A DNA stretch of 64,000 nt from a virus. The notes under the pieces are model-generated. The model made no database searches. It was not told the origin of the DNA and saw nothing but the letters and a program-made list of their open reading frames with translations. A program made the position numbers and the translations under genes. The stretch spans positions 38,228 to 102,227 of IMG/VR virus record IMGVR_UViG_3300045988_012220; one strand, given 5' to 3'. Shown here piece by piece: positions 9,638-61,113 of the stretch; the first letter of the stretch is position 1, and each line of letters begins with the position of its first letter.

Positions 9638-9908
9638 TAACTTTATAGCTCCCTGTAGCAGTAATGTTACTTGAAAATCTATTTAATTTCTGGGAAGCCC
9701 AAACGTTTAAGTCGTGGGTAATCAGAAGCGAAGTCTCGAAAGAGAAACGTTCAACGACTATCCGAAAGGAGTAGGGTTCAAGCGAACCCGAAATGATAGA
9801 CATCCTAATTGGGATGAAGATATAGTCTGATCTCATATGAAAGTATGAGGGCTTTTAATGATCGCAATAAAGCCAATCTGTAGTAGCGATACAGGTTAAA
9901 CATAAATG
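9638..9908 (+). ncRNA. group I self-splicing intron (271 nt, no ORF) in the capsid gene
   Basis: It contains gttcaacgactatc and gaagatatagtctgatctcat followed by a ctcat...atgag hairpin, and ends in aacataaatg. As I remember it, agatatagtctg plus a terminal acataatg matches the 3' core of the phage T4 td group I intron. The 5' junction gggt|taa also resembles td. The flanking ORFs join in frame (…TGEMG|IREFDRILKE…). Confidence 0.7.
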
Positions 9909-32049: not shown

Positions 32050-32056
32050 TTAAATT

Positions 32057-35000
32057 ATGGCAAATTACAATTTACTTAAGTCCCCAGCAGAGGACTATTT
32101 TAGAGGGTAGGCTAAAAAATTTGGTACAACATTACCAAATCAACGCAAATCCGTTCCTAATAAAAGGACTTAGGCTAATGTACCAAGTTATATATCAAGA
32201 CAATCTGGTTCAAGATTAGAATCTGATATAATGCCGCATGGAGATTGGTATAAGCCTAGTCAAAAATCTATTCAGAGATAGAAAAACGCTATAGCTGAAT
32301 ATGACTGGAATAAACATATTGACAGCTTATACAAGCAGCAAGAAAGATCAAATAGGCAAAAGATCGATGCTCAAGACGACTCGGAAGGCTTACTTTCTGA
32401 CACAGAGAAAGAGAAGCAATCTAAACTCGAAGAAGATGCCCTTCATCAGGAATATTTAAAGAGTCCGCTGCATGCAATATTCGGTTCTATGGGTTCTCCT
32501 TTGACCGGATCTTATGATGGTCTTGGAGAAACATTATTTAATATTGGATAGAGAGCTGGTCTGTTCTCTGCTTAGTCTAGCGATCTTGGAATAGAAAGCA
32601 CAAAGGGTAAGATTGCTCTCGCGCAAACAGACCAAGCTAAAGCAGATGCGTGGGCTAAACGAGAGCGATTAAAAAGAGATTTAAAATCAAAAGAAGATCA
32701 GTGGAACTATCTTAAAGCTAATCCTAAAGCTTAGGTTAAAGGTGATGCGTGGAAGGATACATATCTTCTCGGATAGGATCTTCTTAAGACTTACGATTAG
32801 TTATAGGATAAAGACCTTAATGAATTAGCAGACGCGTACAAAGCTACATGGATGAAAGATCACACATCTATGTGGGAAGGGTTCTAGGCTGCTGTAACAA
32901 AGATGTTCGCTTCTACAAATGATACATTTGATGGTACTGGTAGATCCAAAGAACAAATGGCTAAAGATTGGCTTGATAATTATAATAAATAGTTGTCTGA
33001 TAGATTCGAGAAAGCTCATCAAGGAATGAGTTTGGATCAAAAAGAGATTGAAGCTAATCAATTTAAAGCTAAACGCGAACAGGATCTCAAGGATTATAAA
33101 GAAACTCTTGATGACCAAATGCGTAGAGCTTCTAAATGGAAGAAGTTCTGGAACGTCAGCAAACATGCTGAGAATCTTGCAAACATACATGCTAATGATG
33201 ACCTTTTAACACCAGATTATTGGTTATGGAATTTACCGCAGCAAATGGGTTCTTCTTGGTCTTCAGACACAGGTAATATTGGTAATCTTATCACAACGGC
33301 TGGTACTATTGGTTCTTTTGCTTTAGGCGCAGCTGGACATCCAGAAGCTGGTTTTGCTTTGTACAACGCCGCTAATGCAGCAGCACTCCCATTTAACTTA
33401 CAAGGTGCATAGGATGAGAACTACGCTGAAATTGCTCAGCGTTGGACATAGAACTACCAATAGAATCTCAACAAATACGAAGTATAGGAAGCGTTCGGTA
33501 AAGCTTAGGGTATTTCTGCATCATATAAAGACTTGCAGAAGCAATCTGTAAAGTTCGCGATATAGAATGGTATGTCTAAAGATGATGCTGAAAAGAGGTA
33601 TGATTTAAAAACGCAGCAAGGTAAAGAAAAAGTTCTCGGAGACTATTTGATGGGCATTACTAAGAGTAACGACCAACGTTTGTCTAAAGCTAAGCTTGGC
33701 ACCACAAAGGGTCTTGAGCAGTAGTTTATGATAGATAATGCTAGAACCATGGGTACTGAAGTTGTGCAAAATGTTATATCATACGTACAGCCTGGTAATA
33801 GTCTTTCTAATCTATATCGACAAGCTGTATATAAACTTCCAACAACCAAACTTGGTGCCAAACTTGCTACAAGTAAAGCTGGTAGACTTGTAATAGGAAC
33901 AGACTACGCTCTTGCTGGTCTTAACGGAGCTGTTGAAAGTAAATTTGCACAGGCTGGGCAGTATATTAATTCTCTTACAAGTACAGCTGGCAAAACTGGA
34001 GCGAAGATTGGTTCTACAACAATGGATATTCTTGGTGGTGGTGTTCTTGGACACTATGTTGGTGCTGGAGTTGGTGCTGCCGCAGGAGAAGTTGCTAGAG
34101 GAGTAAAGGGGCTTGCAAAAGAAATTATGCCTCAGGCTCTTAAAGATGCTGGCGTAATGGCTGGAGAGGCTATATCCAAGAAAGCTGAAGCCTTAGCAAC
34201 AATGGTTGGCGCTAAAACATTAAAAAGGAAATTGTTAAAGGCGGCAGTTAAAAACCCTAACACAATGACTGTTTTAAAGATGCTCAAAAAATACGGAATT
34301 AATACTGTTAGAAGCGGATTGATAGACAGAGCATCTGAGGGTAATGAAGAAATTGTACAGCAGTTGAATGCTAATGCTGCTGAAGAATTTGCTAAGACAT
34401 ATGGATACGGATCAGCCGATTTGCTTAGTCTTGCGTTCCAGGATATGGCTTATAGTAAAGAGGTGTCAGACTTCTATAAAGGTATGTTCGGCCTTGGTGA
34501 GTCTGAGCTTTACAACGATATGGAGATGTTGTCGAACTGGCGAGGCGGTTTTGCTATGGGTGGTATGCACCCTATGGTAGCCATGAACATTTATCACGCT
34601 GTTAACGACATTAAGAATACTGTACAAGTAAAAGACGCCATAATGCATAGTGCACTTCTTGATAGAGAACAAGGAAAGATGAATAGAGCTAGTAATGCTG
34701 TCATCTCAGACCAGATCTCTAAGGGAAGATATAATTAGTTAACTACAGAAATACAGTAGCTCAGAGAAGCTGATTTGAAGCGAGAGAGACCGCGTTTCGG
34801 TGAACAATATTGGAATGACTTACAGTCTAATGTGGAACGTATTTCTGCTCTCGTAAACAATAAATAGATTGAGCAACAATATCGCCTTAAAGGTATCAAC
34901 AAAGGCACAGAGCAATACAATGTAGCTATAGCTGATAGAGCTAATATCGAGCAATAGTTAGCTGCCAATAGAAAAGCTCAGTAGGAAGCTGAAGTTAGGC

Positions 35001-38000
35001 TTCAGTAGATTTACGGACAGTAGGGTTATCAAAACCAGGTAGAATAGGCTGTAAATAGGCAGGAATAGTCAAGAGATCCTATGCTGACTGCTATAAATGC
35101 AGCTACAGCAAAGACTAAGGCTATTGAGTCTTACGTTAACAGAAAGGTAGAAGAGTATAAGAAGTCTCTTGATACAGCAGCTTTACCTCAAGAAGAAGTA
35201 GAAAAATCAGTAGCAAAATATAAAGAGTCAATTAAAGATGAGGCTAACGAATATGGTGAAAGATTTGTAGAAAATTCTTAGAAGGAAGAGCACACTAGGC
35301 ACGTAAATAACTTCCAGAGAAATTCTGAAGCTCACAATAGAATGAAAGCATTGCTTACACTTAAGGCTAAGATGAACTCTATTGATGATATATTTAAGTT
35401 TGCTCACGATAAGCTTGGATTAAAGACCGTTAGACCTGATGCTAAATTGCTGTCAGCAAATATAGATAAACAAATTTCTCGTGCAAAGCAAAGTTTGGCT
35501 AAAGCTTATAAGAATTTTGACGAGAAGTCTACCGATGAACAGACATTGCAATTCTTGAACAACTTTAGCGAATCTATTGGATTTAATGATAATGAGATCC
35601 AGGAGCTCGAACAAGCTAAGGCCATGTATACAGCTAATGAATCATTACTTAACTCTACATTATCAATTCATACAGAAGGTGTTACACGTGATGATAATGG
35701 TAATCTTGAGTATAATCCAGATGAGCTTAGATATCAGAGAAAGCAGGCTGAGTTAAAGTAGAAGCTTGGTGATAAATACAAGCCAGAAGAGCATACTAGA
35801 GCTGCAGCTAAAGATGGATCAAAGAGTAAGCTTAATGAACGTATCACAAAGATTATTGATGCAAATAAACAGAATGAAAATATCGACTGGATGTTGTCTG
35901 ATATATATTCTGGAGACGCTGTAACAAAGCTTACAGAGGATTACTAGAATGATATGCTTAAAGCTGCCGAGGAAGATATAAAAGACATTAATACTCAAGC
36001 CAAATAGGCTGTAGACCCAACAGAAACTTAGCAAAAGCATGTAGCTACTACAGAGGAATTACAGAAACATGCTGAAGAATATAAGCGTCGTAGAGATAAA
36101 GCTAGAGAGCATTATAGAAAGAAGCGTAAGGCTAGAAGGAATAAAGCAAGGGTATCATTCTTACTTGGTTTTGATGAACTCGCAATGCAGTCATTCGATG
36201 GGCTTATGGAAAACGCAAAGGTTGGCTTCTATAAGTTTGAGTAGCTCTACAATGATATAAAAACTATTCTTCAAGAAGAGACTGGATAGGATGGTGGGCC
36301 TTCGGTATTAGCTTTAGCAAAGGCGATGTATATTCGTCATTATCTTACATCTACACGTAAAGAAAAGGAGAATATGAATACTCCTATAGATGTACAATCT
36401 TATGGAGCACAGGTTGCCACACATGCTTCTCAAGATACATCGTTCGATGGATATAGAAAGGCTTTAAAGCGTCAATAGAATAGAGCTATTATACATTGTT
36501 TTCACACAACAATAGCATACGACGATAATGGCGCTCTACATGTATTTGAAAATATAGACGAGATAGACAGACTTGAATATCAGTCTCATTATCCAGAAAT
36601 TGAGGAAAATGTAAATATCTCTGATAAATAGTAGATACTTGGATATCTTGCAGATAATACAGATAGGTTTGGGAATCAAGATTATTCTGATATAATTGAT
36701 ACAATATTTTCTCAGCCAAACAAAGAAGAATTATTATAGGGATTTGCGCATTATTTGGCATCAATAGATACAACTTATTTTAATTCTCAATCTATAAGAG
36801 ATGGAGAAACTATTAGAGAGCTTGCACAGGCTATAATGTTAGGAAATGACGACAGTTTTGCCGATGCACTGTTAGATAATCCGAATGGATTAGAAGATGC
36901 TAAGCAGTACGTTAAATCTGTTAGAGACAGAATGTTAAACGGCGGTCAGTATAGAGTGCTTGATACAGATATTCCTATTTATGGGTATGATGACAAAGGC
37001 AGAGCTATACAATCATAGGCAGATATTGTCCTTGTTGATAATGATGGATAGCTGCTTGTTGTAGATGTCAGGTCTTCATTTAAACCAGATCTAAAAACCA
37101 GAATGCTTGGTAATTAGAAGTCCAACGGTCGAGCTAAAGAAACAATGATCCAGCAGGAATAGAGATAGCTTCAAAGGTTAAATTAGGTTCTTTATGATAC
37201 ATTTGGCTCTAATATTGAAGGTACATACGTAATGCCATTCTATTACGATAGAACATCACGCGGAATTGCAGCAGAGCCTGTATTTAAAGTAGAAATGCTT
37301 GATTTTAACAAGCCTGTAACACCTTATTACAATAAGTCTAATGAAGATATATCTAATGAAGTTGTTAAACCTTTGTAGGATAAAGTAAATGAATTAAAGG
37401 AAGATTATCAGTAGTTGCTTGATAGTATCACAGAAGCTGGCGACAAGAAATACTCAGATTCTCATGCATTGCTTGATACATACAATATCTTTAAAGAAGG
37501 GTCAAATAAGGATGAATTATTGCTTCAGATGAGAGATCTTCACTCAGCTATAGAATCTATCCAGAGCTTAAAAGAAGACGCTTAGATGCGCTTAAATTAG
37601 CTCCTGTAGCCTAAATAGCACGAGAACACTGTGCCAGAATTCTACCCAGAAGATGCTTTTGATCACGTTATTGTAGATGAGCAATATTAGGCTGGTCTTG
37701 ATACAGTTCACGAAATCTGTAAGAAGCTTGATACGCTATTAAGTTCTATCACGGATCTTAACATTACGACAGCAGACGAACGAGCTCAAGTTAATGAACT
37801 CATTTACTCAATATATGATGCCTAGACAGCACTTGATCAATTCTACGGCAGCGATCAGTTTAAAGTTGGTGACACTCTTCCGGAGCAAAAACTTATAGCA
37901 GCTGCTATTAACAAGCTCGTAAACAATAGGATGATGTACGGAGATGCTGCAAATAAGGCTTTACAAATGTGGCAGTCTCAATTTGCATCCAATATTGGCA

Positions 38001-41000
38001 ATCCTAGCTTTACTTATTTCAACAAGATTAAGTCATTTCTTGCTACATTTGATGGCGAGTTTATGAATAGCCTTGTTGGTAATAAGAGCTTATAGAGATT
38101 CTGGAGTACAGTTATAAATGACTAGCTTAAGTTCTTGGCTGATAATGCAAAGAATGTACAGAAGACTAACACAGCTCTTGATAATGCGCTTACTGATACT
38201 ATTTATGATGCAGAAGACTTTATTAGAGAATATAATCAGAGATTCCCTGTGGATCCAAACATTGATGATATACTTGATGCAAACAGCGCGTAGAGTATCA
38301 ACATGATTGACGATCAATGGAGAGAACTGTATAGTGATACTACTAAGCACTTCCCTGCATTCAGAGCTAAACTTGATCCACATTACTTCTCTATAGCACT
38401 TGATCCGCATTTGATTTATCCAGACGCTTCTGGGAAATCTGGTAATGCTGAGCTTATATGGAGAAATAATGAAGTATAGCTTAAGCTTACAGACTCTAAG
38501 GGAAGAACGATCTTTATGACATTTGATCAAGGTAATGATGCTGGTCCTAGAGGTGTCGATCCAGTATATTTTGCTAGAAAGAAAGCTGCAGATTCTGTGT
38601 TTGTATAGAAAGTTAAGTATATGCTCGACTTTATGAAAACGCATCCAGGATACCATATAAGCATGAAATTAAGCCGTTCTAAGGGCTCAATTAAGAACGG
38701 TGGAGAATTATAGCCTGTAAGTAAATTCTTATTCGCAGGAACGCTTAATTAGCATGATTTGTACAATATTACATGCGATGCTGGTAATAGAATAGGTTTC
38801 CTTAAGGCTACGCAAAACGTAAACACCGGTGACGTAACGAAGATGGTATATGGTGGTCCAGAGCTGTCAACTTTAATTAGCGGATTTGATCTTGAATATG
38901 TAAAACGTACAGCTATAACACAATCTGGTAATATCGTATACTTCTACGATACTGGTCAGACTGAGAAGACTGTAGATAATAGATGCATTGGCACACCATT
39001 AATATAGCCTAAGTTTACAGCTGGCCAAGGCGGTTAGGCTAATAAGATTGCAGACCTTATATGGTATAAGTGTTATCAAGGCTTAAATGAGTATCAAGGT
39101 TATTCTATAGATGATTTACTTAAGTAGGTTCTTTATATTAAGGCTGATAATAAAGTATTAAATGAGAAATATAACTCAATAGAAGGTCTTGTTACATTAG
39201 ATCCAGCTAACAAGAGAGTTATTATAGGCAATGTCATTTACCCTACATAGAACCCTAGTGTAGACTACGCTAATATCTATAACGCGCTGTGTAATATGTA
39301 TATGACAAAAGACGCCGCATTTGTTCAGTAGAACATGCAGCAGTATATATAGTCATCACATAATAGTGTATTAGCTAAGCTTAACGCACAATATGCATCA
39401 GACCCTAATCTTGATAAAGTGGAACTTCCAAATGGTCTTACGTTTACAAGAGAAGACTTTACTCACGACGGTAAGGGTACAACTGGTCTTGGTTATATGT
39501 TGCGCAACGGTTATTTAATGTCGTACGCAGCTAAGTTGGAGCCACCTACAGTATATGTAGACAACGTAGAGCTTGTGCAAGATCATCCGGACGAAAGTGC
39601 TCAGCAAGTGTCTAAAACAGTTGCTAAACAAGATGTTCAATAGCAACAAAAGTAGGCTGAAGACACATTTATGGCTTTGTTCTACGAACAAGATTTAAGT
39701 GAGTTTTATGGACAGAAAGAAAAACCTTCGTTTGCTAACGCTGTTGATGAGTGGGTTAGAAAAACCACTGGCATTACTCCACAATGGGTTGAAAACGAGA
39801 GGTTATCTGACGTGGCCTACAAAAAGAATAGTGCAGTACTCGCTAAATGTACAGACGCTGTTATTCAAATATCTAATTCTGTTCCTTACACTATTGGATT
39901 CCACGAAGGATTCCACAGAGCGTTAGAACTACTTGTAGAGCCATCTATTAGAGAATAGATGTATTCAGCATACAGAAAAGCTCACCCAGAAGCTGCCACA
40001 GAAAGAGACGTGGCTGAAGGTTTAGCTGACTTATTTGTTGATTATATGCTTGGCACAAAAGATGCTAACGCCATAAAGAAACAAGGATGGATTAAGAGAA
40101 ATGTAAAGAAAGTAGCTAACAGATTAAGCATCTTATGGCATTATAGAAACAATGCTAAAACAGTTCTTACTTTGTTCAATGATATCAAGTCTGGGAAATA
40201 TGCAGATAAATAGGTAAGTAAAGAACAGTAGGATAGGTTTAAAAAGCTGTTTGGCGAAGACTTGCATTATGAAATAAATGGACGCAAATTCGATCATATA
40301 GGATCAGCTGCCGAGAAAGAGCATATGGCTAGAGCTCTTGGATATATTATAGTAAAGTCAGCTAAAGATGCTACGGATATATATGATGCTGTACATGACT
40401 CTTCTGAACTTCCTATCAAATATATACCAATGAGAGTTATAAATAACCTTATTGGCGAGCCTGGTTCTGTTAAGCCTGTTCTGAATGGATAGTATATGTC
40501 TGTGAATTCGGTTACTCCTACACAGCAAGCGTTTAGAGAAGTGTTTTACGAAGAGTTAAACGATAAAGGTAACATTGTATTCCCTAATTTCTCAGCTATA
40601 TCAAAAGAGGTATAGAAGTATCTTACCGAAATAATGGATGCTTATGACGGCAAATATCAGCATGATGACGATTCTGAGACAAGTGACCAGGAAGAGAATG
40701 ATTATGGAAAGTCTATCGAAAGATACGATAAATCTGCATTCGAGTTCAATAAACTTGATTCTGTAAGTAAACCAGTAAAAATGTTCTTTGCCACAATACC
40801 TTACTACAAGTTTAATGATAATGGCAAACTTACACTTGATATATCTAAGAATATATATGGTATTCCTACATTTATGCCTATTAAGTAGGTATTTAATGTA
40901 ATTGTTAGCAAATTACATGATGTTAAAACACCTTTAGACTTATTAAATAGACTACAAGAGCTGTCTACGTAGAATCCTATGTACATGGCGATCTATTAGA

Positions 41001-44000
41001 AGTATAATGATCTATACAATTCTATATATACATTTAACGACGATGATTAGCTTGAAAAGATAGACTTCGATAAAGAGGCGTTTATGATACAGATATTTAC
41101 AGCTATCAAGGGTCACGAGCATAACTTTATTATTGGTAGGTCTATACGCGATAAGAATGGAGGCGTAGAAGTTAAAATATCTGATGCAAACTTCGATAGA
41201 GACGCAAGAATGTACCCTAAGCTTTGGAATTCATTCTTATCTTCTGGCCAATCTGGCTTATTATAGAGATCAGTTGGGTAGAATGGACAATTACTTCTTT
41301 CTACAAAGTATAACACAAATAATACTTAGGTAGATATGCCTACAACTGTAGCAAGAAATGCATTTAGATTTATATCTCAATTTTTCTCTGATTTACAGTC
41401 GTAGATACTGAATGATTCTACTAGCGAATTTAAGATAAACGGAAGAATTAGAAGCGCAGCGTCTAATAGTGATATCGAAGTACTTAAGGATGATATATGT
41501 AAAGAATTTAATATGCTTGGCATAAACTTTACTAAAGAAATGCTCGACCATATGCTGTCTACAAAGTATAATGGTGTTGGTAGAGAGGCTCTTAAGAAAT
41601 GGATTACATCAACAGGCGTGTCTAACATTAACAGTTTTATTGATGCCGTAGGTAAAGTTGTGCAAACTAATGGTTATACAACATAGAAGGCTATAGACTA
41701 GATATTTAAGACTGGTTTTGTTAGCGAATTAGGTAACTGGGCTGGAGCTTACATGAAGATTACTACAGATAAGATGTCTAATGGTATGGATGGTACTAAG
41801 CTGTATAATGAGTCACAGAACAATAGCATTAGCAATACTACAGAGAATCTTAATAGCCACGATAAGAATAATATGGTAGTAAGGACTATTTTGTAGTCTA
41901 GCTACAATATCATGAACAACAATGGTGTAAATATGGGTTCTATTGTAGCAAAGCAATTACAGAACGGAGAAGATTTCAATATTAGTATTTATACTCCTAT
42001 TGGCTTTAAGTCTGATAATCGCGGTGACAATGGCTCAAAATATAGTAATCTTGCAGAAGCCGAAGATTATATCAATAAGTTCGCAATGCTTTAGAACGGA
42101 TACTGTATATTCCCAACACTTGCCGACAAAGGTACATATATGGTTCTTGGTGGTATAAATATCCCAGGAATGGAGTTTGGGCAGTCAGATAATGGTGTTT
42201 ATACTGTATCTGGTGCTCCGAAGATGGTATTCTTAGATAGTACGCACTATTACTTACAGCCTAATCAATCTGTATTAAACTAGTTTATTGACTATGCTTA
42301 TACAGAGCGTGAAGCTATACTTGATTGTAGAGAACAACTTGGCTTACCTGTAGATAATCCTAAAGGTTTACCAGTACTTAATGATGAAGATAAGATAATG
42401 AATTATCACATCGGTAAGAAAGGGAAATAGCCTGGCGGTATTCAGTTTAAATCACTTACAACACTTAGAGTGTATGAAGATGGATAGATTAAACGTTACG
42501 AAATAAGCAAGATGTCTCCTGATGAATAGCTTAAAACTCTTAATGAGCAATTCTTCGACAGATCTAGAGAAGAGCAAGAATAGATAATGTCATTAACTCT
42601 TTAGGAGCAATATGAGAACGAAGTAGATAAAGCTGTTAGTCTTGGCATTGTTTCAAAGGATGAAAAGCTTGGTTATCTTGGGCTTAATAACATTAACCTC
42701 AATCAGAGCCAAATAGACGCCGTAGAACGCACTTTGTACGCTCAGATGTATAAGGATCTCACAGATAAAGGAATAACACCTAATACGCAAAATTTGCAGC
42801 GTACAGCACATAGTATGGCTATTACTGCTATATTACAAGATGCAACGAATAGAGCTATTATTTCATCTGAGGAAAGTTTGAGATTATATATCGGTAATCC
42901 TGGGTTCTTTAAGAATGTAGAAGATATTCAGAAACGTATTGGCGGTCTTGTATCTACTGGTGATGACAACGTTACATCTTTGTCAAATTACGACGGATCA
43001 GATGGAGAGCTTTATAGATGTGCTGAAATATCAGATTATGAAGTAGCTTCAAATGCTGATATTATGAGCGAACTTCAAGAGAAGATGCGCGATGGTGAGC
43101 TTAGAGAAATTTATGGAAACCGTTACGGATTTAAAGGTGTTGACGATTTAGATATCGGTGCAGTAAGAGCTAGACTTGTAGATGACTTTGGTGAAGATGC
43201 TGTTAAGAAAATAGAAACAAGAGCTAATAACTTCTATGAAGCCTATACGTGCGGCATAAATGTAGCTGATGGTGCATCTTATATTACAGCTGATATGTGT
43301 AAAAGAATGCTTAGAGCTAGAGGTGCATTAACAAACGACGTAGCTAAGGCTATTAACATTCTAGAAAGCTCTAATAAATACTCTTGGATGGACCAGAAAG
43401 ATGCATATAAACTTATATATGATAAAGTAAATCTTGTAACAACCAAGTATACCGCTTATGGATTTAGGGACCATACAACTAATGGGAAGAAGGTTTCTAA
43501 CTTAGCTGTACCATACTACAATAAGTTTGCATTGTTCCCTATATTCGATTGTATAGCTACTGGTAAGCTTAAGAATGTGTATGATAAGATGAAGGAAAGT
43601 AAGGTTGATAATCTTCTTATGACGTCTGCCGTAAAGGTTGGTCTACAAGGTCATTCTGAGTTCGATGGTAATACTATTAGCAAGCCGCTAAATGTTTATA
43701 CACAGAGACTTTCTGCGCTCCGCAGGCAGCTTAATACAGACCCAGAGGAAGGTGATGTTGTAGCAGCTGGTACACAGATGATTAAGGTTTGCTTGTCTAG
43801 TTTGCGACTCGATAGAATGTATGGCGATATGACTGGAGAATAGCTTAGAGATAAGCTTATGGGCTCTATCAATAAACTTTCTAAACTTGGTGTAGATAAG
43901 TTTAAAGACAGATTCTATTCTAATGGTATTATAGACCAAAAGAAGCTTAGCGAATATCTTATAGAACAACTTGGTACAAGAAATGCTAATAAGAATCTTA

Positions 44001-44500
44001 TAGACGCTCTTACGTATAATCCATAGACATGCTCAATGAATGCGCCTATTGCGTCTACTGCTGATGCAAGTTGGATGGAGTCTATGCTTATATCTGCAGC
44101 TAATAAAGATATTATTGACATCATGACTCCTGGTAGCTCATTTATTCAGAGATCAGTCTTTGCTATAGAAGGTAAAAATGGCGAAGGTAATATATAGGGA
44201 CAGGAGATCTATAATGGTAAGAGATTATAGATGATAAATAAAGAGGGCTCTATGGATGCAGTAATATCTATAGATTACTTCCAGGATATTCTTCCGAAAA
44301 ACTTGTCTTACAACGAGGCTAGACAATGGCTCTTGGATCATAATATAATTGGAGAAAGTGCTACATCTAATACGATCGGTTATCGTATTCCTACACAGGC
44401 TCAGTCATCTATACATGCTTTACGTTTTGTAGATGTTGTACCTGCTGTCAAATCCACGGTAATACTTCCAACTGAGTTTACCAAGATCACTGGTTCGGAT
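32057..44500 (+). CDS. giant virion-RNA-polymerase-type protein, exon 1 (4,148 codons)
   Basis: ATG 32057. All track ORFs from 32993 to 44231 (16 of them) share frame 2. A line-by-line scan found no in-frame TAA/TGA, only TAG. It contains HEGFH (39902-39916). The exon ends …EFTKITGSD at 44500, where the intron-like sequence begins. Confidence 0.75.
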
Positions 44501-44761
44501 AAACTATATCAATGTTCAAACCAGTATAATATAAAAAACTCCTTTAATTGCTGGGAACTCCATATCAAGTGGACAATCAGCAGCCAAGCCCATTATGGGA
44601 AGGTTCAACGACTATCGAAATCATAGTATAAGAGAAACACTTATACGAAGAAGAGAGTAGAGTACACGAAAGTGGAAATGGGGAGCTTTTAGTATATGGT
44701 AATAGTATACTAATTGAAGATATAGTCTGATCTCATTGGTAACAATGAGTTAACAAAAATG
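44501..44761 (+). ncRNA. group I self-splicing intron (261 nt, no ORF) in the giant RNAP-type gene
   Basis: It shares gttcaacgactatc and gaagatatagtctgatctcat plus a ctcat...atgag hairpin with the capsid-gene intron, and ends in aaaaatg. In-frame TAA 44711-44713 blocks read-through. The exons join in frame as …ITGSD|FDIDHLY…. Confidence 0.7.
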
Positions 44762-47700
44762 TTTGATATCGACCATCTTTATTTAGCACGTTATAACGTT
44801 AATGAGAGTGGTGGTTATGAATTTGATCCAGAAAGTGCAGAAGGATTACAGAATAGTATTATCGAAAGCATTCTTACAGTACTTAAGGATAAAAAGTCAC
44901 TTAACATCTTGTATAAGTCTATCGATAATGATACTGAGCTTGTAACAAGCATAGCTGATGAAATCCCAGAACAGGGTAATACGAAGAGTGTAGCATACAA
45001 CTTTGGTACATTACATGAATAGGTTACTCGTAAAAATGACTACATTACAGGTAAGACTGGTATCGGTCCATTTGCGTTGAATGTAACAAACCATATTCTT
45101 ACAACATTATATGGCGTTAAATTTAAAGAGTCTAGCTTTACACAAATAACAGGTATTACTGGTTTTGATTAGATTCTTGACGAAGATAATAATCAGATTT
45201 CATCTTGGTTATCAGCATTTATTAATGCCCACGTAGATATTGTGAAAGATCCATATATATCTAAGCTTAATGTAAACGGATTTACGTACAATATGATTAA
45301 CTTGCTTGCTAGAAATGGCAAGGGTAAACAAGGTCTTTATTTCTTGTGTTAGCCTATAATTAGAGAGATGGCTAAAGCTGATATAGATACTAAGTCTCAG
45401 TTTACTAGAGATCCTAAGGTATTTAGATCTGCTTTCGAAATGAGGGATAAGAGATTAGCTGAAATATTCCCTAGCGTTACCGGTAAGACAATAGACGATT
45501 AGTATATTAAAGATGCTACAGAACTAAATAAATCTAAAGGCGAACCTGCTAGAAGGGCTGAGATAGTGAACTCTGTACTCAACAATATGGATATGCTTTA
45601 GAAGATAGCTAAGAATCCGGATTTAGTCTATGCTTAGACAGAAGAGGGAGAAAAAGCTAGAGCTTTCTAGGTTAATTGCTACATAGCATGGAAGTGCCTT
45701 GAAAAGTATTCTAATGCATTAAATAGTTTGGTACAGTACACTAAGATTGACACTCGTAAACAGGGTAAGAATTTCCTTGAAATGCAAGCTTATCTTAGAG
45801 GTTATGAGAATCTTACAAACCCAGAAACTGATTAGCTGTTTGATATGGATTCTATCAACAATCTTATACATGGTACTTGGATTGAGCAGAAAACAAGAGA
45901 CGCTATTCAAGAACCCATGAGAGTTATGGCTGGACAATCATTCTAGGGTACACCTTAGTTTATGGAGTAGCTTATCAATTTATCCGACGACTTTAAGTAT
46001 AAAACAAACGACAGAGAGTCTGATTTACTTAGAAATGCTAAGACTATGAAGAAAATATCATAGGCTGCTAGTAGTTAGATTAAGGCTAGATATGCTGTTA
46101 GATTAGCTAAATCTTTAGGTATTGATATTAAAGGTTTGTTCGACGGGAATGCTACAATATTTGACAGACTTAATTCTATATAGGCTTGCATACAGAGAGA
46201 TGCATATGGTTTAGGTAGATTAAAGGATAATTATCTATTATCGCATCTCGCTCCATATATTTAGGATTAGGATGTTTTCGTAAATGGAAAACTTACCAAT
46301 AAGCCTAAATTTATAAGTGTTATTAATAGTATGGATGAAAGTAAAATGTCTGCTGATATGTTTATAGAGTCTTGGGAAGAACTTCTCAATGACCAATAGG
46401 CTAATGTAAGAAGATTTGCAAATGATCTTATATTGTATGCAATGCTTACATCTGGTGACACAAAAGGCTTTAATAAAATAGCCAAATACATTCCTATGAG
46501 TTGGCTTGAAGTTAGACACGATGAGAGCACCGTACCATTCTCTGATTATATTAGGGAACAACTTGAGGCTCCGGAAATTGATCACGATCTTATAGCTTAG
46601 AACAACTATATGGATAGCGATTTGGTGAGCAGGGCTACATTCAAAGATTACTATTATGCTTTCAATGCTTAGTACTCTCCTGCTGTAATAATTAGTAAGG
46701 ATTCTCACGAACACGACGCTTTGTATATATCAGTACGAAATGATGGAGCGGTATATAGTGATCCAACGTCGTACACATTGTATAAAAAGGTTGGAGAAGC
46801 TATGATTAATGGATCCAAACGTGCTGTATATGCGTTATTACCTAAGAGGGGATGGTCCGATAGAGATGGTCTTAATATATACGAAGCAGGTGATATTAAT
46901 CTTAGTGTAAATGGCATTCCTATGAGTCAAGAAGTCATTGAAAGTCAGCTTGATAAACTTATGACTTACTTGAGCCAGATGAAGCCAAATATTACTGACG
47001 AGTAGCGCAATAACTGGATGTCGTGGTTTAATTAGATGTATTACAATGCTAATTCAGAATATCCTACAATATCACAAGCTGTAGAGCAGCAAAGCACACA
47101 AAGTGTTAGTAATATTAATCTTGATGGCAAAGGCCCTTCTGGATAGACTGTGTACATAAGCAAATAGTTATTCTATAAAGATTAGCCTCAACAACACCCA
47201 AATGTACAGTACGTGTTCACAGATAATGCTTAGTCTTATGCTAAGGCGCAAGGTTTACCTATGCAAGGTTTTGCTAATTATAACCCAGTATTAAATGTAA
47301 GTTCTGGCGCCACTGGTACAAATCAAGCTTGCATTAGAACTGGCAGCGACGGAAAGATTACACCTAACGCGTTTGGTCTTGTAGTAAAAGTTAATCAGCA
47401 AGATGCTTCTGGCAGATGGCTTGCTAAAGATGGTTGTTTCTAGGATAATCAAGGCGACATAATGGCGTTTAAGTCGTGGGTTAACCATATGCTTGCAAGA
47501 ATAGATAGAAATAAGCCAATAGTATTCCCATCATAGATAGCTCTTGGTAAAGCAGCTTTGCCTAGAGAGGCTGCAGAATGGCTTAGTTTACAATTGCTGT
47601 CAAGATTTAACATAAAATCAACAGTTTAGGAAAACACTAAAACTGGTTATACTGGCTATGGATTGTCTATAGAAGGCGTTGTGGATGATAATTATGCTAA

Positions 47701-47812
47701 CACACTAATTAAAGAAGAGTAGTAGAAGTAGGCTTTAGCATAGATTAATCTTACTAAGGAAGATATAGAAGAAGCTGAAAGAATTAGAAAACATTGCAAA
47801 GGAGGTAAATAA
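44762..47812 (+). CDS. giant virion-RNA-polymerase-type protein, exon 2 (1,016 codons plus TAA)
   Basis: It continues frame 2 through track ORFs 44759-45022, 46721-47005 and 47261-47443 to TAA 47810-47812. Only TAG interrupts the frame (checked). The spliced product is 5,164 aa with about 126 TAG codons. Confidence 0.75.
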
Positions 47813-50800
47813 TGAAAGAAATATGTCCTAATTTACATAATAAACAAGTAGCCAAAGAGTTTGGTGAATTAAAAGATTTGTTCGGTGAGGATACTGCGTA
47901 TTTACTCTGGAGCAAAAATAATGGATATAGTATAGATAAGGCACCAAATGGCGCCGACTCTATATTATTTGGAGAGTTGCTGAACGTTACCAATGGAGAT
48001 AGAATATAGGCTCTTATATTAAAAGCCAAAGTTTATTCAAACGAATTCCTTAACTGGTTTGGTGACTGGACATCTGAAGATAAAGAAAACGTATCTAAAG
48101 TTGTAGATAAGAATGGAGAGCCGTAGGTTACATATCACACAGTAAGCCCCGACCACTATTCTAATTTTAAGAAGTTTGACACAAATATCGAGGGGTTTAA
48201 AACAGCTATATATCATACAGATAGTATAGAGATGTCTATATCATATAATAAATATAAAGCAGAGAATTACGAAGAAATCAAAGACTATGATATAAGTACA
48301 TATAATACATATGTAGAAACAGCCAACAAGGAAATATTTGAAGCATTAAACGATATTAATAAAGATGATTTTTTAGACGAACGTAATTATGATTGGTTTC
48401 TAAAAAAGAAAGAAGAATTTTTATACTATATCAAAAACAAAGAACTAGGTAAAGCTGACGATATTCTTAAATCTTTTCGTGGTTTGCTAAAACAAAATAA
48501 AGAAACATTTGTTCTTATTGGCGACCCATTTAGTGACAAAGAACCTGATTTTGATACTTTTTATCAAACGAAGCTAGATGAATTAGAGCGGAGTTTTTAT
48601 ACTTTATATGATGCTGAGAAGAATTATAATCCTTATTATATAGAAAGAAAACTACAAACCCAAACATTCGATTATACTAAAATTGATTTTCTTAATATAA
48701 AGAATCCAAAAATAATTGATGCTAAAGGAAATAATTGGAACCACATTCCTGTTGGAAATAACAAGATTTTATCAACTAGAGATTTAGAGAAGTCGTATAT
48801 TACAACAAATTATTCTGATGCAGAAATAGCCGATTCTAGAGCAGAACTTTATATTAGATACAAAAATAAAGATTTCTCTAAATTCAATCTATATGGTATT
48901 ACTATTAGTATAAATAAAAACGGAGATGCTAATTTTTACACAAGAGACAATGTTATTACTATAAAAGGGTATTTGGACTTAGATACAAATCAGATAAAGT
49001 AGGAATATTAGAAAAACAACATATATTTTTATAATCAGGATTTTCATCGCGATGGCGTTATTATTAATAATGTTACTGATTACGGATCTCCAGTTGGGGA
49101 GTTATTACCACATACGGTATACGAATGCATTGATAATTCTCAAGTGAAATCCGCATTTAACAATGGACAGTTTGCTAATCCAGATGACATGTATGCATCT
49201 TCTCAAGGAGAATCCAATATGGGCGCATCCTCTAGATTATCTAATATTCCTAGTAAAGGGGATATATCTATATTGTAGCAGTATTTAAAGTCTCATAAAA
49301 GCGGTGTATCTAGTACAGCTTTAAAGCTTGTAATGACTGCTGTAAATAGATACTTTAATGATAAATAGACTGGAGTTACATACGAAATAGTAGATAACCT
49401 TCCTGGCGGAGAAGCAGCACATTATGATAGAGTTAACAAGGTTATTCGTATAAATAAGAATGCAAACTTTAGAAATGAAAGCAAATCTACTGCACCTGAA
49501 GTATAGACTATTGTTCACGAAATGCTTCATGCTGTTACAGAGTATGCGATTAGTAACGATTCTAGGATAAGGAAATCATTTACAGACCTCTACTAGAAAA
49601 CAAAGAAAGTTCTTGGGAAAGATGCGTAGGACTACGGTTTGAATGATGTATATGAATTTGTAGCAGAACTTAGCAATGCGCAATTTGTAGAAAAACTAAA
49701 GTCTATACAATATAATCGTAAACAAACGCTGTTTGAAAAGATTAAACAGACTATAAAGAAAATATATTCTTAGATATTTACAAGCTATAAAGACTTTATT
49801 GGTTCAGATAATGTGTACGAAGCTGCTGTTAACGATTTGTTTACAGTTATGTCTCACAACGAATAGAAGGAAGACAATATAACTGATAAAGAAGCTAAAG
49901 ACAGATTAGCTTCAATACAAGCTTCTGAAGACAAGGTTAATCAGATACATCATAGAATAACTGAGCTTTTCCAAGGGTTGTATAAGGACTATAAAAAATA
50001 GCTTAATAAGGGTGCCAATAGACAGCGTAGAGAAGACTAGGTGTGGTCTACAATATAGGAACTTAAGTCACAGGAAAAGAAAGAGTCTTCAAGAATAGCT
50101 ATACAATCTGCTTTAAAAACTATTGGTGTGTTCGCAAGAGATCCAATTAATAATACTATTTTGCAGGCTCGTAGAGATACTATTTTAGGCTTCTTGTAGG
50201 AATGCTAGAAGAATAATTTCGATAGCCTCACAGCTGAATAGATACACGATATGAAGTCTAATATTATAGACTTCTACAACGATCTTGTCAAAACATTGTC
50301 TGATAACTAGATGGATCTGGATGCTAGAGATCAAGCTGACGTCGATACGCTTAATGCCACTGTAAGACAGATTAATCAATTATGGAAAGATGCTGCACAA
50401 ATTGTAGCAGACAAAATAGTCGATGAAAATGTAGATAAATACATCAATGAATCTGAAGAAGAGAAGAATAAGATAAAGACTGTAGCTAAAGACTGGCTTC
50501 ATAAGAATGATATGTATGGAGACGAATCTAAACTTACATTATTCTTTAATTACTCTAGATAGAACAGTCCTATTATTCGCCAAGCGTTCTAGATGATATA
50601 GGATGCTGATCAGTAGACTAGAAAAGAGTCTCTACCGGTTATGTAGTAGATAGCAAAAGCTTTTGATAAAGCTAATTCCATCATAGATGATCTTACTCCA
50701 GGAAACTGGTAGACGATGTTGATGGAAAGGTATACAGACGGTCCTAAGAAAGGAGAGTTTACAGGCTTGTTTAGATCAGCTGTTAATAGAGGTTAGTTTA

Positions 50801-53800
50801 AACAAGACTAGGAAAATTTTAAAGAGAAGCTTAATAATGAATGGCAAGACAAATATGGTTATTTCTATTACAAAGATCCTATTACTGGAGAGACTTTAAG
50901 AAGTGATACAGAGTCATCAGTAGAAGAAGAGCAATGGATCGGAGATCAAGAACCAAACTATGTAACATATCAAAGAAGATACGAGGAATGGCTGTGTGAT
51001 CATGCACATAGAAGATATTCTAAGACATACTTTATGGAGCGCCTTAGTAAACCTTACGACCCAAAGACTAGAACTGGTCACGGTCTGTCTCCAAGAACGC
51101 TTTCTAGACAGCAATATATACAAGATCAACTTAACTATTTATTATAGAAATGTTCAGATAAGCAGACTGGTTTATCTTACCCAGAAAAGCTTAATCCGCA
51201 CGATTATCAGAAACTGTAGATGTGGAAGGATGCTTTACAAGATTTGGGTAATCCATTTGATCAAGAAGGCAACCTCAAAGAAGGCGATGAGTTACAAACA
51301 GCCCTTGAGATACAGTCTTGGAATAACTGGTTAGCTAAACAAACAGACTATTCTACAGATTTTGAGGAGTTTGATAAAGAGTATCAGAATATATTGAATT
51401 AGATTAAAGCAGGAGAAAAAACTGCATAGGACCTATATAAGTTTATTGATGCTAATTCAGAATATGGTATAAATCCAGAATACCTCGAATATATCTTTGA
51501 TAAAAACAAATCCGCTAAAGAAAGTCTATAGAGAATGTTCTAGAACTCAATGAAGAAGCTTATTAAAACAAAGAATGGCTTTGTTAAAGATTTCAGTAAT
51601 GTAATCTTCTCTGAACAGCCTGATGGTACGGTAAAAGTTCCAGATATGTGGTTCTATTCAAGATCTGCCGATATCAAAAATAATGAAGAGAACAATGCTA
51701 CTGGTATAGACCCAGAAGAATTTAGAGACGCTTTTGATATTAGAGAAGTTCCTTATACAGATCCTTCTGGAATGCAATTAGCTAAAGATGGTGTAACAAA
51801 ATTTGATCCACGTAATAATCCAAATGGCGTAGAGCCTATGTCGTGGTTTGAATATATACTTAAACAGTACACGGATGCAGCTCTTGATGGCAGAATGCCT
51901 AGATATGTATCGCTCGATGGTAAAATAGCGATAGACTTCTCTACACTTGGTGGCAATCGGTAGTCGGTAGAGAGATGGATAGCTGAGAATATTCTTATGT
52001 ATACAAAAACATGGGAAGGTAAGGATGGTTCTATGAAATCTAAGCAAGTTCCACTTACAATATTCTCTCAGATAATTCCTAGACACGCTACATTTGGAAA
52101 TAACTAGCCTACATCTAGATATATTCCTAAAGGTCGTTTTACAACAAAGAAAGGATCTTTTGGCTCTTCTATATACGACGACAAGTTCTACGATGGTGAT
52201 AGAAGTGGTTTGTAGCCAGACTTTGATAAGTATGGAGATAAGGATTTTGTTAAGTTTATATAGAAGGGTGACGCTAGAGCCTAGTATTACAATCTTCTTG
52301 TACAAACTATGGAATAGCAATGGGATAAGCTTGGACTTGATCCATCGTATAATAGATTTAAACTTCCGCAGATGGAGGGAACTTCTGATATGAAGAGATC
52401 TAGAGCTTTTGGTAGCCCTAAAAAGTTCATTAAGAATAAACTTCAAAACGCAACTGGTGCTACGTCTGATGATACAAATATGAGAGACGAAGGTGATTTT
52501 GTACAGCGTAATGGTAAGTGGGTTCTTAAGACTGCGCCAACACGCTTTATAAACGAAATGGAAGACCCTTCAATGATTAGCTCAGATTTAGCTTACACTG
52601 TTGGCATGTTTGTAAATATGGCTAACAACTTTGTAAATAAGTCTAAAGTACAAGCTAAGCTTGAGACATTGGGATATAACTTGTCTGATGAAACAAGAGA
52701 TTCTGAACATCAAGGAACTGGTACTAGATAGCAAGAACGATATGCCAAGATGTTAAAACAATTGTTTTATGAGTCTAGAGAAACGAACGATAATCCTGGA
52801 GAAAAGCCTTCGAAAAAAGCTATCGCAGCAGCAAAACTTGTAAATAAGACTAGGGGTGCTTCAGCTTATCTTATGCTTGCAGCTAACATACCTTCAATGT
52901 TTGTTGGTGTATGGGACTCTTTCACACAGATGCCAGCACAAGCTGCTAGAAATGATCAATTTGGTTTTAGAGACCTTATAAAAGCATACCTTTATACAGG
53001 ATTTGATCTTATGAAGGCTTTAGCTAATATTGGTAACCCTATAGCTAATTGTAAAGCTGTAGCTATGATGTAGAAAGATGGTCTCGTTAGAACAAATGAT
53101 GAGACATTTAAAGACATTTATCGCAATAGAATTACAAAGGCTTTAAAGCAATCAGCTACAGGAGGTTATACAATGGGCGATTATATGATGAACATGCTCG
53201 CACAAAGAGCTACATATAATGCCAAGAAATACTATCCAGGAAACACTGTTGTTAAAGAAGGTTTTTATACAAAGGCTGAGTTCGATAGATTAATGGTAAA
53301 TAGTGGTCTTACATAGAAAGAGATTAATAGGGAATGGAAAGATAACCATGGAGAATCTATGTGGAATGCTTACTATTTCGATCATGGTATAGCAAAGATT
53401 AAACCATCGTATACTAATGCCTAGATGTAGGACAGTAAGTTATCTGCTACCATACAGCAAACTATGGCATTGCTTAATGGTAACTCGCCAAAGAATGATC
53501 AATCAGCTGTTAGTAACAATGTCTTGCATAAATTCTTCTTCTTAATGCGTAACTTCTTTATACGTAGAGCAGAACATTGGTTTGCAGGATATACTTCAGA
53601 TAACGTTGTAAGAGAGATTGAATAGATAAAAGAAACTATGCAAAGAGGTGGTACAACAACCATTAAAACTAAAACTGTTCGTAAACCTCTAACAAATGAG
53701 TAGAAAGCACAGAGATGCATGTATGACTATAGTACTGGTGAAGCTAATCCAGCTGTATTAGTAAATCTTATGAGAGGAGCGCATACTCAGCTTAAATGGT

Positions 53801-54504
53801 TTAACCAGCAGATGTTTAATCGTCAAGCCACTATTACAGATCCGGTTAAATTTAACAAAAATGAAGTAAAATCTCTTAGAGAGTTTTTGACATGGGGGCT
53901 TTGTCTAGCATTACTTTCTGTAGGATGGATGGCGTTTCATAGATATGTATAGGACGATACAAAAGATCTTAAACCTAAGACTTATGAAGACTCTTTGCCT
54001 ACTGTAAAGAACTTTATAGACTAGAAGGTTTACCTCAGACTTATAGACCAGTGTATGTTCAGAACTATTGACTCACAATTTCAGTTGTACAATGTTTATT
54101 AGTTTGTAGATATGGTTAAATCCGCAACAACTGTAACATCTGCTGTAGAGAAATTCACGGAAGTACCTACAGCTATTGCTGATGCAGCCGGATTAACAGG
54201 AAATAATCCAACCGACATTATTTCGTCTGACTCAAAGTATAAATACTTCCCACGTTGGCAAAGATCTTTAATGACAGCCTCTGGAGTCCTTAACAATATA
54301 CAAACATGGGGCTCCAGTAGAGGTAACGATAAAGTAGGTAGATGGTACTTTGACAACACAGTGACAGGTACCGTGTTTAAGATGGGTGGATATACATGGA
54401 AAGGTGGCGAAGAAAAGAAATCTAGTTCTGGTAATGTGTTTAAAATGGCTCCAATGTAGCCGATGCCAAAAATGGCACCTATGGCACCAATGCCTGGATT
54501 TTAA
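47812..54504 (+). CDS. giant cargo/ejection-type protein with HEMLH zincin motif and C-terminal TM segments (2,230 aa)
   Basis: The ATG at 47812 overlaps the previous TAA and is preceded by aaggaggt. TAA 54502-54504. Nine track ORFs (47812 through 54112) share frame 1. All gaps were written out codon by codon: about 50 TAGs, no TAA/TGA. HEMLH lies at 49516-49530. Hydrophobic segments are ASAYLMLAANIPSMFVGVW and FLTWGLCLALLSVGWMAF. The tail reads KMAPMQPMPKMAPMAPMPGF. Confidence 0.75.
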
Positions 54505-59676: not shown

Positions 59677-60282
59677 TTAAAAGGGAAGGTCAGATGCGCC
59701 TGCTGCATCCGCAGTTTCCGGAGTAACGGTTGGTGGTACGTTAAGCGGATCGTTGTTCTCCTTATCGGCAACAACTGGACGCTCCATAAGATCGTTCTTA
59801 AAGAGCTTAATCTGCGAATTTGTATTAGACATGTCTTCAACGAAGATTCCAAGCTTACTTACTTGAGTATAGCCCTTCTTGTCGTAAATAACCTTCAAAC
59901 GGAGTTTCTTCTTGGTAGCGATCATAGGATCAAGCATTTGCTTTGTCCAGTCGATCATCTCCTTAAATGTAGAAAGCTCTGCATCTGGTCTCTGCGGATA
60001 AAAACAATCGAGAATCTGACAAACTCGTCCAAACTGAGCGTTGTCACGCTTCTGCAGATCTTCGTCTGTCTTAATATACATTCCCTTTGTATTCTTCCAC
60101 TCTGTCATAGTAGCTGTTTGACCATTTTCATTCTCAAATACAATCTCAAGAAAATCGAGACCCTGAGGAGACTTGTTACAGTTTACCTCTTTAAGAGTGA
60201 TATTCTGGTTAATGCCTACTGGCATATAACTACTATTACTAAATTCTTCGTTGTTAATTGCGGCTGTCTTTGTACTAAACAT
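59677..60282 (-). CDS. ssb: single-stranded DNA-binding protein (201 aa)
   Basis: An intact ORF whose acidic C-terminus ends …AAGASDLPF, like the conserved D-(I/L)-P-F tip of bacterial and phage SSBs. It lies in the replication cluster. Confidence 0.65.
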   Translation of the reverse strand: MFSTKTAAINNEEFSNSSYMPVGINQNITLKEVNCNKSPQGLDFLEIVFENENGQTATMTEWKNTKGMYIKTDEDLQKRDNAQFGRVCQILDCFYPQRPDAELSTFKEMIDWTKQMLDPMIATKKKLRLKVIYDKKGYTQVSKLGIFVEDMSNTNSQIKLFKNDLMERPVVADKENNDPLNVPPTVTPETADAAGASDLPF

Positions 60283-60372
60283 AATCTCTATTATTTTAAT
60301 ATACGTAATGCTAATATATCTAATTTACTCTCAGCATAGTATGCTGTTGATCGAATAAACCGATACATCAAT

Positions 60373-61113
60373 TTACTTAAATATTCTATCCCAATGTGTT
60401 GTAAGTGTCCCATCTTCATTACCTTCTGCGATGACAATATCCTTTCCGGCTATGTGTCTTGCACGAGCCTCCATAATGGTATCAGATGTACCACCTTTGA
60501 AGGATATGTGTGTTTCATTTCCTTTGCGATATACATAACCAACCGCATCGGCTAATCCGCACACAATTTTACTCAGTTTACCAACTAAGTCGAGCTCTTT
60601 TGCAGAAACTTCAACACCGTCCTTTTCAGTTACGGTATCTTTAACGTGACCTACAAGAATAAATTCGTCACACAAATCTCGGAACATATCAACTACTTTT
60701 TTTACTGCGTCTCTAAGATACTTATAACCTGCACCATTAGGTAAGGTCGTTACGTCTGTGCCGTCCCATTTCTTACCCATTGGAGTCTGGCGATAGAGTG
60801 TACAAGCATAGCTCATACAAATATCCTCGAGTCGTGTAGCATTGTCAATAGTGATATGTTTATAGAAATTATGACCTACTTCTTTATTCTTGGCACGAAT
60901 GGCACTTGCTGCTTCTCCTAAATCATTGATCGTACGACACTGGATGGCCATCGCATCAACGAAGACAGAGCCTCCCTCAAGGTCTATGATAAGGTTATTA
61001 TCCAGCTGTGCAAGACAAGATGTCTTACCAGCCTTTGGAAGACCATAGAGTATAAGATATCTAGGGTTTTCAGAAACTGCAGGAATTTTACTAGTAGGTA
61101 ATGTTAAACTCAT
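60373..61113 (-). CDS. RecA-fold ATPase, AAA_24 / Sak4-like (246 aa)
   Basis: Walker A is GLPKAGKT near the N-terminus. The hydrophobic strand plus acidic residue FILVGH, and the size and context, fit phage Sak4-type recombination ATPases. This is an inference. Confidence 0.55.
   Translation of the reverse strand: MSLTLPTSKIPAVSENPRYLILYGLPKAGKTSCLAQLDNNLIIDLEGGSVFVDAMAIQCRTINDLGEAASAIRAKNKEVGHNFYKHITIDNATRLEDICMSYACTLYRQTPMGKKWDGTDVTTLPNGAGYKYLRDAVKKVVDMFRDLCDEFILVGHVKDTVTEKDGVEVSAKELDLVGKLSKIVCGLADAVGYVYRKGNETHISFKGGTSDTIMEARARHIAGKDIVIAEGNEDGTLTTHWDRIFK

Follow-up and report, generated by a model that had tools for sequence, protein, structure and literature searches.

In crAss-like phages, among whose hallmark genes is that of the virion RNA polymerase (vRNAP), the Delta and Zeta groups are dense in group I introns and inteins, which interrupt the genes of the major capsid protein (MCP), PolB and primase (PMC7886860). 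In the same survey, the legend of Fig. 3 mentions that the block of transcription genes includes an intron endonuclease of the LAGLIDADG type, and the breaks of the Zeta RNA polymerase (RNAP) that occur "within … the DxDxD motif" are put down to "additional, yet unknown expression mechanisms" (Yutin et al. 2021, PMC7886860). Here, we describe a 261-nucleotide (nt) group I intron without an open reading frame (ORF) that separates the first aspartate of the catalytic DFDID motif from the other two, in the giant vRNAP-type gene of a crAss-like phage; the gene lies in a 64,000-nt stretch of viral DNA (positions 38,228 to 102,227 of IMG/VR record IMGVR_UViG_3300045988_012220), which is referred to as "the window" and in which all positions are counted.

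The locus resembles the introns reported by Yutin et al. in phage group, in TAG recoding and in the interruption of core genes; these authors found introns via endonuclease domains, a route by which an ORF-less copy of 261 nt would escape, and their text describes no site-specific intron between D and FDID (PMC7886860). Introns of vRNAP genes are also known from jumbo phages: the vRNAP gene of AR9 is a six-piece join with an HNH endonuclease, and, as Birkholz et al. 2024 are cited in PMC12908238, an intron endonuclease of PhiPA3 attacks the intron-less vRNAP gene of PhiKZ. The introns of the AR9/PBS1 vRNAP beta subunit and of the PhiPA3 RNAP subunit are likewise group I introns in a phage vRNAP gene, with a homing endonuclease in some copies and, in AR9, a core that is 79% identical to the window core; in contrast, the jumbo phages have multisubunit RNAPs and HNH-type enzymes, whereas the RNAP is here a single-chain, QDE-1-like one, the enzyme of the related introns is of the LAGLIDADG type, and the insertion occurs in the metal-binding Asp triad. 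More widely, the window core is 77-86% identical to those of Twort, AR9/PBS1, phiKZ-like, SPO1-like and Lak phage introns. The classic phage introns (T4 td, nrdB and nrdD, Twort orf142, and the DNA polymerase introns of SPO1 and Bastille) share with it the U-G pair, the terminal guanosine (omega-G), P1 and P10, the P3-P9 core, extra hairpins between P7 and the 3' strand of P3 (P3'), the location at conserved codons of essential genes and the optional presence of endonuclease ORFs; they differ in host gene and phage order, no P2 is recognisable here, and in the long form of the intron of the Suoliviridae type the ORF runs through P3', P8 and the 3' strand of P7, with recoded TAG codons. Set against the subgroup IA-type phage introns (Twort and T4-like), the window intron has two P7-P3' hairpins (44615-44679), no visible P2 and a core 77% identical to that of the Twort intron. 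Introns in crAss-like phages and in phage vRNAP genes being already known, the present one is a real, fairly ordinary mobile-intron insertion; what we have not found described in the accessible literature is an intron specific to the D/FDID site, the forms of it that lack an ORF, and its repeated occurrence in many lineages of the RNAP.

When TAG is read as a sense codon, one frame of the window is open from 32054 to 47812 (15.7 kb); it contains 126 in-frame TAG codons, and TAA and TGA are absent from its interior, except for the TAA at 44711-44713 within the insert. At conserved columns, TAG aligns mostly with Gln of the relatives, in agreement with the TAG-to-Gln recoding that has been described for delta-group crAss-like phages (PMC7886860); with TAG read as Gln, the product after splicing has 5,164 amino acids (aa). 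The exon ends are those claimed by the initial annotation: exon 1 ends with ...EFTKITGSD, its GAT codon occupying 44498-44500, and TTT GAT ATC GAC CAT (FDIDH) follows from 44762. Excision of exactly 261 nt joins GGT TCG GAT to TTT GAT ATC GAC (GSD/FDID) in phase 0, i.e. between the codon of the first Asp and the FDID codons of DFDID; the joined exon DNA reads ...GGTTCGGAT/TTTGATATC... across 44500/44762, and the junction-spanning peptide of the spliced product is ...ITGSDFDIDHLY... / ITGSDFDIDHLYLAR. The DxDxD motif that splicing had been predicted to create is the single one of the protein and occurs where the exons join (residue 4149 of the translated frame).

The suspected relation of the flanking protein to two-barrel RNAPs is borne out by its homology with the solved crAss-like vRNAP, gp66 of phage phi14:2 (PDB ID:6VR4). 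An 800-aa segment around the junction matches chain A with E=5e-20, TGSDFDID being identical and no gap occurring at the junction, and a profile of 13 sequences of the family matches the same chain with E=2e-66 (chain residues 1064-1725). After a 14-residue tag offset is applied, the aligned motif is gp66 1361-DFDID-1365, which is catalytic and where an alanine at any Asp kills activity, according to the gp66 paper; the catalytic DxDxD thus aligns exactly at the splice junction and not elsewhere in the protein. Exon 1 is homologous to gp66/6VR4, with its closing GAT as the first Asp of DFDID, and exon 2 aligns to the region of the bridge helix and trigger loop, so that the aligned span takes in the Connector, the DFDID-bearing barrel, the bridge helix and the trigger loop, which are homologous in the two proteins. 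From this homology, the flanking region probably folds as a double-psi beta-barrel, and the host gene is, as judged from its sequence, that of a virion-type two-barrel RNAP of a Suoliviridae-like (delta-group) crAss-like phage; packaging in the virion and transcription of early genes by the RNAP are known for phi14:2 only. The phi14:2 gene differs in that it has no intron and encodes 2,180 aa, as compared with the 5,164 aa of the window protein, which has an N-terminal extension of about 3,000 aa. Scans of the 800-aa junction region against Pfam and PHROGs returned nothing useful, the gp66 family being represented in neither library. In three contigs (L100, L110 and L111), GADYDVD replaces GSDFDID in the RNAP gene, which is contiguous and intron-less; these contigs had at first been taken as insert-bearing, and this assignment was rejected.

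The insert itself is matched by the group I intron model RF00028 over 44464-44749 with 87.1 bits (gathering threshold of 50 bits; E=7.6e-21 for the whole window) and with high posterior probability over P3-P9, a match well above anything expected by chance, which supports the intron that had been proposed from the letters alone; sister copies in contigs L010, L021 and L055 score 88-91 bits. That proposal had called it a second group I intron, which is correct for the window, where RF00028 also matches 9628-9849, but not for the giant gene, which has one intron only. Its statement that the insert cannot be read through also stands: the length is a multiple of three and the TAA is in frame, and further in-frame TAGs occur at 44624, 44690 and 44723. 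In P1, 11 of the 12 positions are paired between 44489-44500 and 44514-44525, with a wobble between U44500 and G44514, such a U-G wobble being the mark of a group I 5' splice site; the P1 placed by the Rfam alignment, which lies wholly in exon 1 and has non-canonical pairs, was rejected in favour of this covarying one. A shuffle control of P10 alone gives 5%, and the backing of P10 comes from four covarying variants. When the intron and short flanks are folded by unconstrained minimum free energy (MFE), P1, P3, P4, P5, P6, P8, P9 and the two P7-P3' hairpins are recovered.

The comparison of ten alleles has revealed covariation between the guide sequences and the exons. The third base of the exon Gly codon (T, G or C) is matched by A, C or G in the P1 guide; in P10, the exon 2 sequences UUGAUAUAG, UUGAUAUUG and UUGACGUU occur with the guides CUAUAUCAA, CAAUAUCAA and AACGUUAA, respectively, and the exon-2 codon variants ATA, ATT and GTT are each matched. 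In the core, P3 is built from three unrelated sequence pairs among the alleles (CUCCUU/GGGGAG, UCGUGU/GCACGA and UAUUGU/ACAAUA), each 6/6 complementary. For P9, three or more variants occur, all with 7/7 pairing, and compensatory changes are seen in P6a and P8; P4 and P7 are invariant among the alleles and thus uninformative on covariation. Covariation of this kind in both guides and helices is, to judge by the alleles compared, explained only by selection for folding and for splicing at the exact sites. Taken together, the P1/P10 covariation and the intron-less alleles fix the exact splice sites.

Alleles that precisely lack the intron, which the initial annotation had suggested looking for, are found among close relatives. 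The annotated phage cr124_1 (Suoliviridae) has a contiguous ITGSDFDIDK, and in a first survey 29 of 33 related IMG/VR contigs had a contiguous GSDFDID at the site; five of these (L002-L006) have 96-97% aa identity and about 90% nt identity in the flanks, and two (L002, L003) carry an identical unoccupied target, ACTGGTTCGGAT/TTTGATATAGAC, the intron-less site reading ACTGGTTCGGATTTTGATATAGAC. The first survey was made with the junction-spanning peptide DFDIDHLY, which favoured intron-less alleles; it was repeated independently of the junction, with a DNA pattern for GYRIPTQAQ, located about 40 codons upstream, and the site was contiguous in 32 of 38 contigs, the other 6 (16%) having an insert at exactly the same position (two of 261 nt and four of 895-912 nt). 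The same short intron occurs in L010/L070, in L021/L048 and in L055, and a further ORF-less copy of 273 nt in L121, so that at least three lineages of the RNAP (that of the window, L055 and L121) have ORF-less copies. A search with the intron core yielded 16 contigs with the subfamily before an FD[IV]D exon, in roughly ten RNAP lineages; in three of them (L036, L059 and L075), the exons are very near to phi14:2 gp66 (...TKTGSD/FDVDKMY...) and the intron is at the same site. The long, ORF-bearing alleles are missed by Rfam at the gathering threshold and give partial matches of 33-46 bits below it. When the 3.5-kb region was compared with annotated phages by megablast, the sole match, of 122 nt, was to cr124_1. 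A 21-nt core that includes J8/7 and the 3' strand of P7 is present at 46 viral-contig loci in IMG/VR. The same 21-nt core also occurs in other genes of L042/L058, L052, L054 and L069 (140-190 kb, in the range of the Zeta group), and the introns of L036, L059 and L075 (954-960 nt) have a P5 extension of about 70 nt, besides an endonuclease ORF after the 5' strand of P7.

The window intron contains no endonuclease ORF, in contrast to the alleles of 911-960 nt, which encode a LAGLIDADG enzyme of about 212-242 aa (PF03161, E=2e-21; phrog_11023, E=4e-19); the sister introns of 895-960 nt carry the ORF where examined, in six of eight such contigs (L011/L040, L014/L056, L067, cr131_1, L036 and L075), and it starts at the place that corresponds to the insertion at 44615-44679. 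In the Suoliviridae-type long forms, it extends from just after the 5' strand of P7 through P3', P8 and the 3' strand of P7 to a TGA in GUCUGA. In these forms (L040 202-1114, L056, L067 and L081), the ORF has two in-frame TAGs, one of which aligns with a Gln of the L036/L075 enzymes, and the endonuclease gene therefore appears to use the recoded code. Between the Suoliviridae-type and the gp66-like lineages, the enzyme has an identity of about 67%, as compared with 25-28% for the RNAP exons near the site; likewise, the introns of the window and of L055 are 94.6% identical, whereas their exons have 66% nt identity (or are not alignable) and 48.5% aa identity, and the introns of L010 and L021 are 95-97% identical to that of the window, with flanks at about 90%. 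An intron and an endonuclease that are more alike than the host exons, together with the patchy distribution, point to horizontal spread among crAss-like phages by homing, and the window copy is, as its sequence suggests, a non-autonomous relative of the mobile intron whose ORF was either lost or never present. The stretch from P7.2 to P3' of the short form recurs in the intron of L121 (ORF-less, 273 nt) and in that of L119.

We propose, with a probability of roughly 0.9, that a selfish homing group I intron occupies the catalytic motif of the vRNAP gene, here in an ORF-less form, and that its splicing is needed for an active polymerase. P1 would form between the last 12 nt of exon 1 and 44514-44525, with U44500-G44514 at the cleavage site, as the sequence and its covariation indicate; by the mechanism of the family, an exogenous guanosine at P7 would attack after U44500, P10, whose pairing (44506-12/44763-69) is observed, would position exon 2, and G44761 would enter the G site, whereupon the exons would be ligated to GAT/TTT and GSDFDID restored. 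Translation of the mature mRNA would also need TAG suppression; ARAGORN found no tRNA genes within the 64-kb window, hence no suppressor tRNA in it. The pattern of occurrence is consistent with a selfish homing element, which would sit in the most strongly conserved target DNA, a place at which imprecise loss would be lethal; the location in catalytic codons agrees with the habit of group I introns invoked by the initial annotation, and the principle that introns occur at the most conserved sites is stated explicitly in PMC12908238.

Several points weigh against this proposal: self-splicing is deduced from sequence, pairings, covariation and the mechanism of the family, and homing by the LAGLIDADG enzyme is suggested by its distribution; P1 has one C-A mismatch in the window, whereas some sister alleles pair perfectly; a recognisable P2 is not seen in the intron; and the derivation of the short form from the long form by a simple deletion was rejected, as the segment from P7.1 to P8 has no similarity to the ORF. 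To these is added the possible effect of translation. Ribosome passage through the ribozyme core impairs splicing in other phage introns; here, under TAG=Gln, ribosomes could run through P1-P8 and might disturb the folding of the ribozyme. The frame of exon 1 meets no TAA or TGA until 44711, in the 3' strand of P8, so that 70 codons would be read through the core, whereas under the standard code translation stops at the TAG at 44624; owing to this code-dependent read-through, the state of translation and the folding of the ribozyme could interact. In favour of an intron kept as a useful regulatory gate, responding to the GTP level, to timing or to a TAG read-through switch, this interaction may be cited; the gene is late and TAG-recoded, and ORF-less copies do persist in at least three RNAP lineages. 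We consider such a gate unlikely: close relatives do without the intron, its sporadic distribution and its greater similarity than that of the exons are the signature of horizontal spread, sister alleles bear a homing endonuclease, and no feature specific to regulation was found. The earlier statement that the active site is conditional on splicing is literally true, as for any intron in a coding gene, but no sign of regulated splicing was found.

A genuinely split gene, with an N-terminal part ending in the insert and a C-terminal part starting from ATG 44759 that would assemble non-covalently, would be in line with the last three intron bases (44759-44761), an ATG in frame with exon 2 after an A-rich stretch, with the start of RefSeq cr131_1 gp48 at the equivalent ATG, and with the two barrels of cellular RNAPs, which are on separate subunits; it is nevertheless very improbable, as the break would part the first Asp from the other two within one loop, although each Asp is essential in gp66, as the insert is a high-scoring ribozyme whose P1/P10 guides covary with the exon codons, which only splicing explains, and as the ATG is merely the conserved ...AUG that ends in the omega-G. 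Decay is no more plausible, whether as an inactive intron or as a polymerase pseudogene in a defective genome or a misassembly: the lack of an endonuclease ORF and the P1 mismatch might be taken as its traces, but the 261-nt form occurs at 95-97% identity in three independent contigs (L010/L070, L021/L048 and L055), its changes are compensatory and not disruptive, all core helices are fully paired, and the rest of the 15.7-kb gene, a hallmark gene (PMC7886860), is without TAA or TGA. We give almost no weight to removal or skipping of the insert by another route (an intein, translational bypassing or a programmed frameshift), for which the length, a multiple of three, and the "unknown expression mechanisms" that Yutin et al. 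2021 invoked for broken Zeta RNAP ORFs might be cited: the in-frame TAA and the three in-frame TAGs rule out a translated intein, no Hint or intein domain was found by the Pfam and PHROG scans of the junction region, and the RF00028 match, the U-G pair, the omega-G, P1 and P10 account fully for the insert.

Two linked readings may be put forward jointly, as a tentative suggestion to which we lend limited credence: that ORF-less introns of this subfamily are a general but under-counted element of the RNAP genes of Crassvirales and may explain at least part of the Zeta DxDxD breaks of Yutin et al. 2021, and that an occupied site confers immunity, in that it may protect against the LAGLIDADG endonuclease of co-infecting relatives. 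Were the immunity true, the catalytic codons of the vRNAP would be a battleground on which crAss-like phages of the gut compete by interference, in analogy to PhiPA3/PhiKZ. The locus offers a testable candidate explanation for RNAP ORF breaks that were earlier called unexplained, and the LAGLIDADG enzyme would be a possible new homing endonuclease, for which the target GGTTCGGAT/TTTGATAT is defined. It also provides a well-documented family of introns, ORF-bearing and ORF-less, that are specific to one site within the metal-binding triad of a single-chain two-barrel RNAP, with signs of horizontal spread across lineages whose polymerases are only about 25% identical. For annotation, the intron must be recognised if the giant gene of the polymerase is to be correctly described in these phages, which are abundant in the gut, and pipelines that use the standard code and protein domains only miss the 261-nt ORF-less form entirely.

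The coordinates of the exons, of the elements of the intron and of the other intron of the window are collected in Table 1.

Table 1. Features of the interrupted vRNAP-type gene and of the introns of the window.
Feature	Position	Strand	Description
Exon 1, giant vRNAP-type gene	32057..44500	+	ATG 32057; 4,148 codons; 94 in-frame TAG; last codon GAT
P1 5' strand	44489..44500	+	Final 12 nt of exon 1, ACUGGUUCGGAU; U of the 5' splice site at 44500
Group I intron	44501..44761	+	261 nt, no ORF, 34% GC; RF00028
P10 guide strand	44506..44512	+	AUAUCAA; pairs with exon 2 nt 44763-44769, 7/7
Internal guide sequence, P1 3' strand	44514..44525	+	GUUCAAACCAGU
P3 5' strand	44539..44544	+	CUCCUU; 6/6 pairs with 44680-44685
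P4-P5-P6 domain	44549..44604	+	Rfam alignment, MFE fold, compensatory P6a variants
Helices of this domain	P4 44549-54/44577-82; P5 44559-63/44569-73; P6 44583-85/44602-04; P6a 44589-92/44596-99	+	
J6/7 and P7 5' strand	44605..44614	+	UCAAC GACUA; pairs with 44723-44727; invariant in all alleles; conserved Rfam core
Peripheral insertion between P7 and P3'	44615..44679	+	Hairpins P7.1 (44626-32/44640-46) and P7.2 (44665-67/44672-74)
P3 3' strand	44680..44685	+	GGGGAG
P8 hairpin	44689..44713 (44689-97/44705-13)	+	Holds in-frame TAA 44711-44713; compensatory variants in L070, L048, L055
J8/7 and P7 3' strand	44716..44727	+	GAAGAUAUAGUC; invariant; within 21-nt core
P9 hairpin	44732..44749	+	CUCAUUG GUAA CAAUGAG; 7/7 pairs; at least three compensatory variants among alleles
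Terminal guanosine (omega-G)	44761	+	Last intron nt; all alleles end ...AUG or ...UUG right before UUUGA
Exon 2	44762..47812	+	1,016 codons and TAA stop (47810-47812); 32 in-frame TAG; starts FDIDHLYLARYN
Group I intron of same subfamily	9628-9849, probably to ~9906		RF00028 93.2 bits; shares GAAGATATAGTCTGATCTCAT core

The other intron of the window interrupts the gene of the major head protein, whose exons, when joined, match phrog_11589 with E=3e-118; the junction is probably located at ...LTGEMG/IREFDRIL..., and the intron corresponds to the MCP introns that have been described in Delta phages (PMC7886860). Downstream of the giant RNAP gene, the next gene of the + strand (47809-54504, 6.7 kb) is likewise open only with TAG as sense. 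In the annotated genome of cr131_1 (L081, NC_055902.1), an intron of 911 nt (record positions about 60203-61113) is unannotated in RefSeq, and gp50 (the upstream half of the RNAP), gp49 (the endonuclease, 243 aa) and gp48 (the downstream half of the RNAP) are listed as three unrelated hypothetical proteins. In RefSeq/GenBank genomes of crAss-like phages, giant genes of the RNAP type bear misleading names, such as DNA helicase, DprA-like recombination mediator, exonuclease V and nuclear pore complex protein-like protein.

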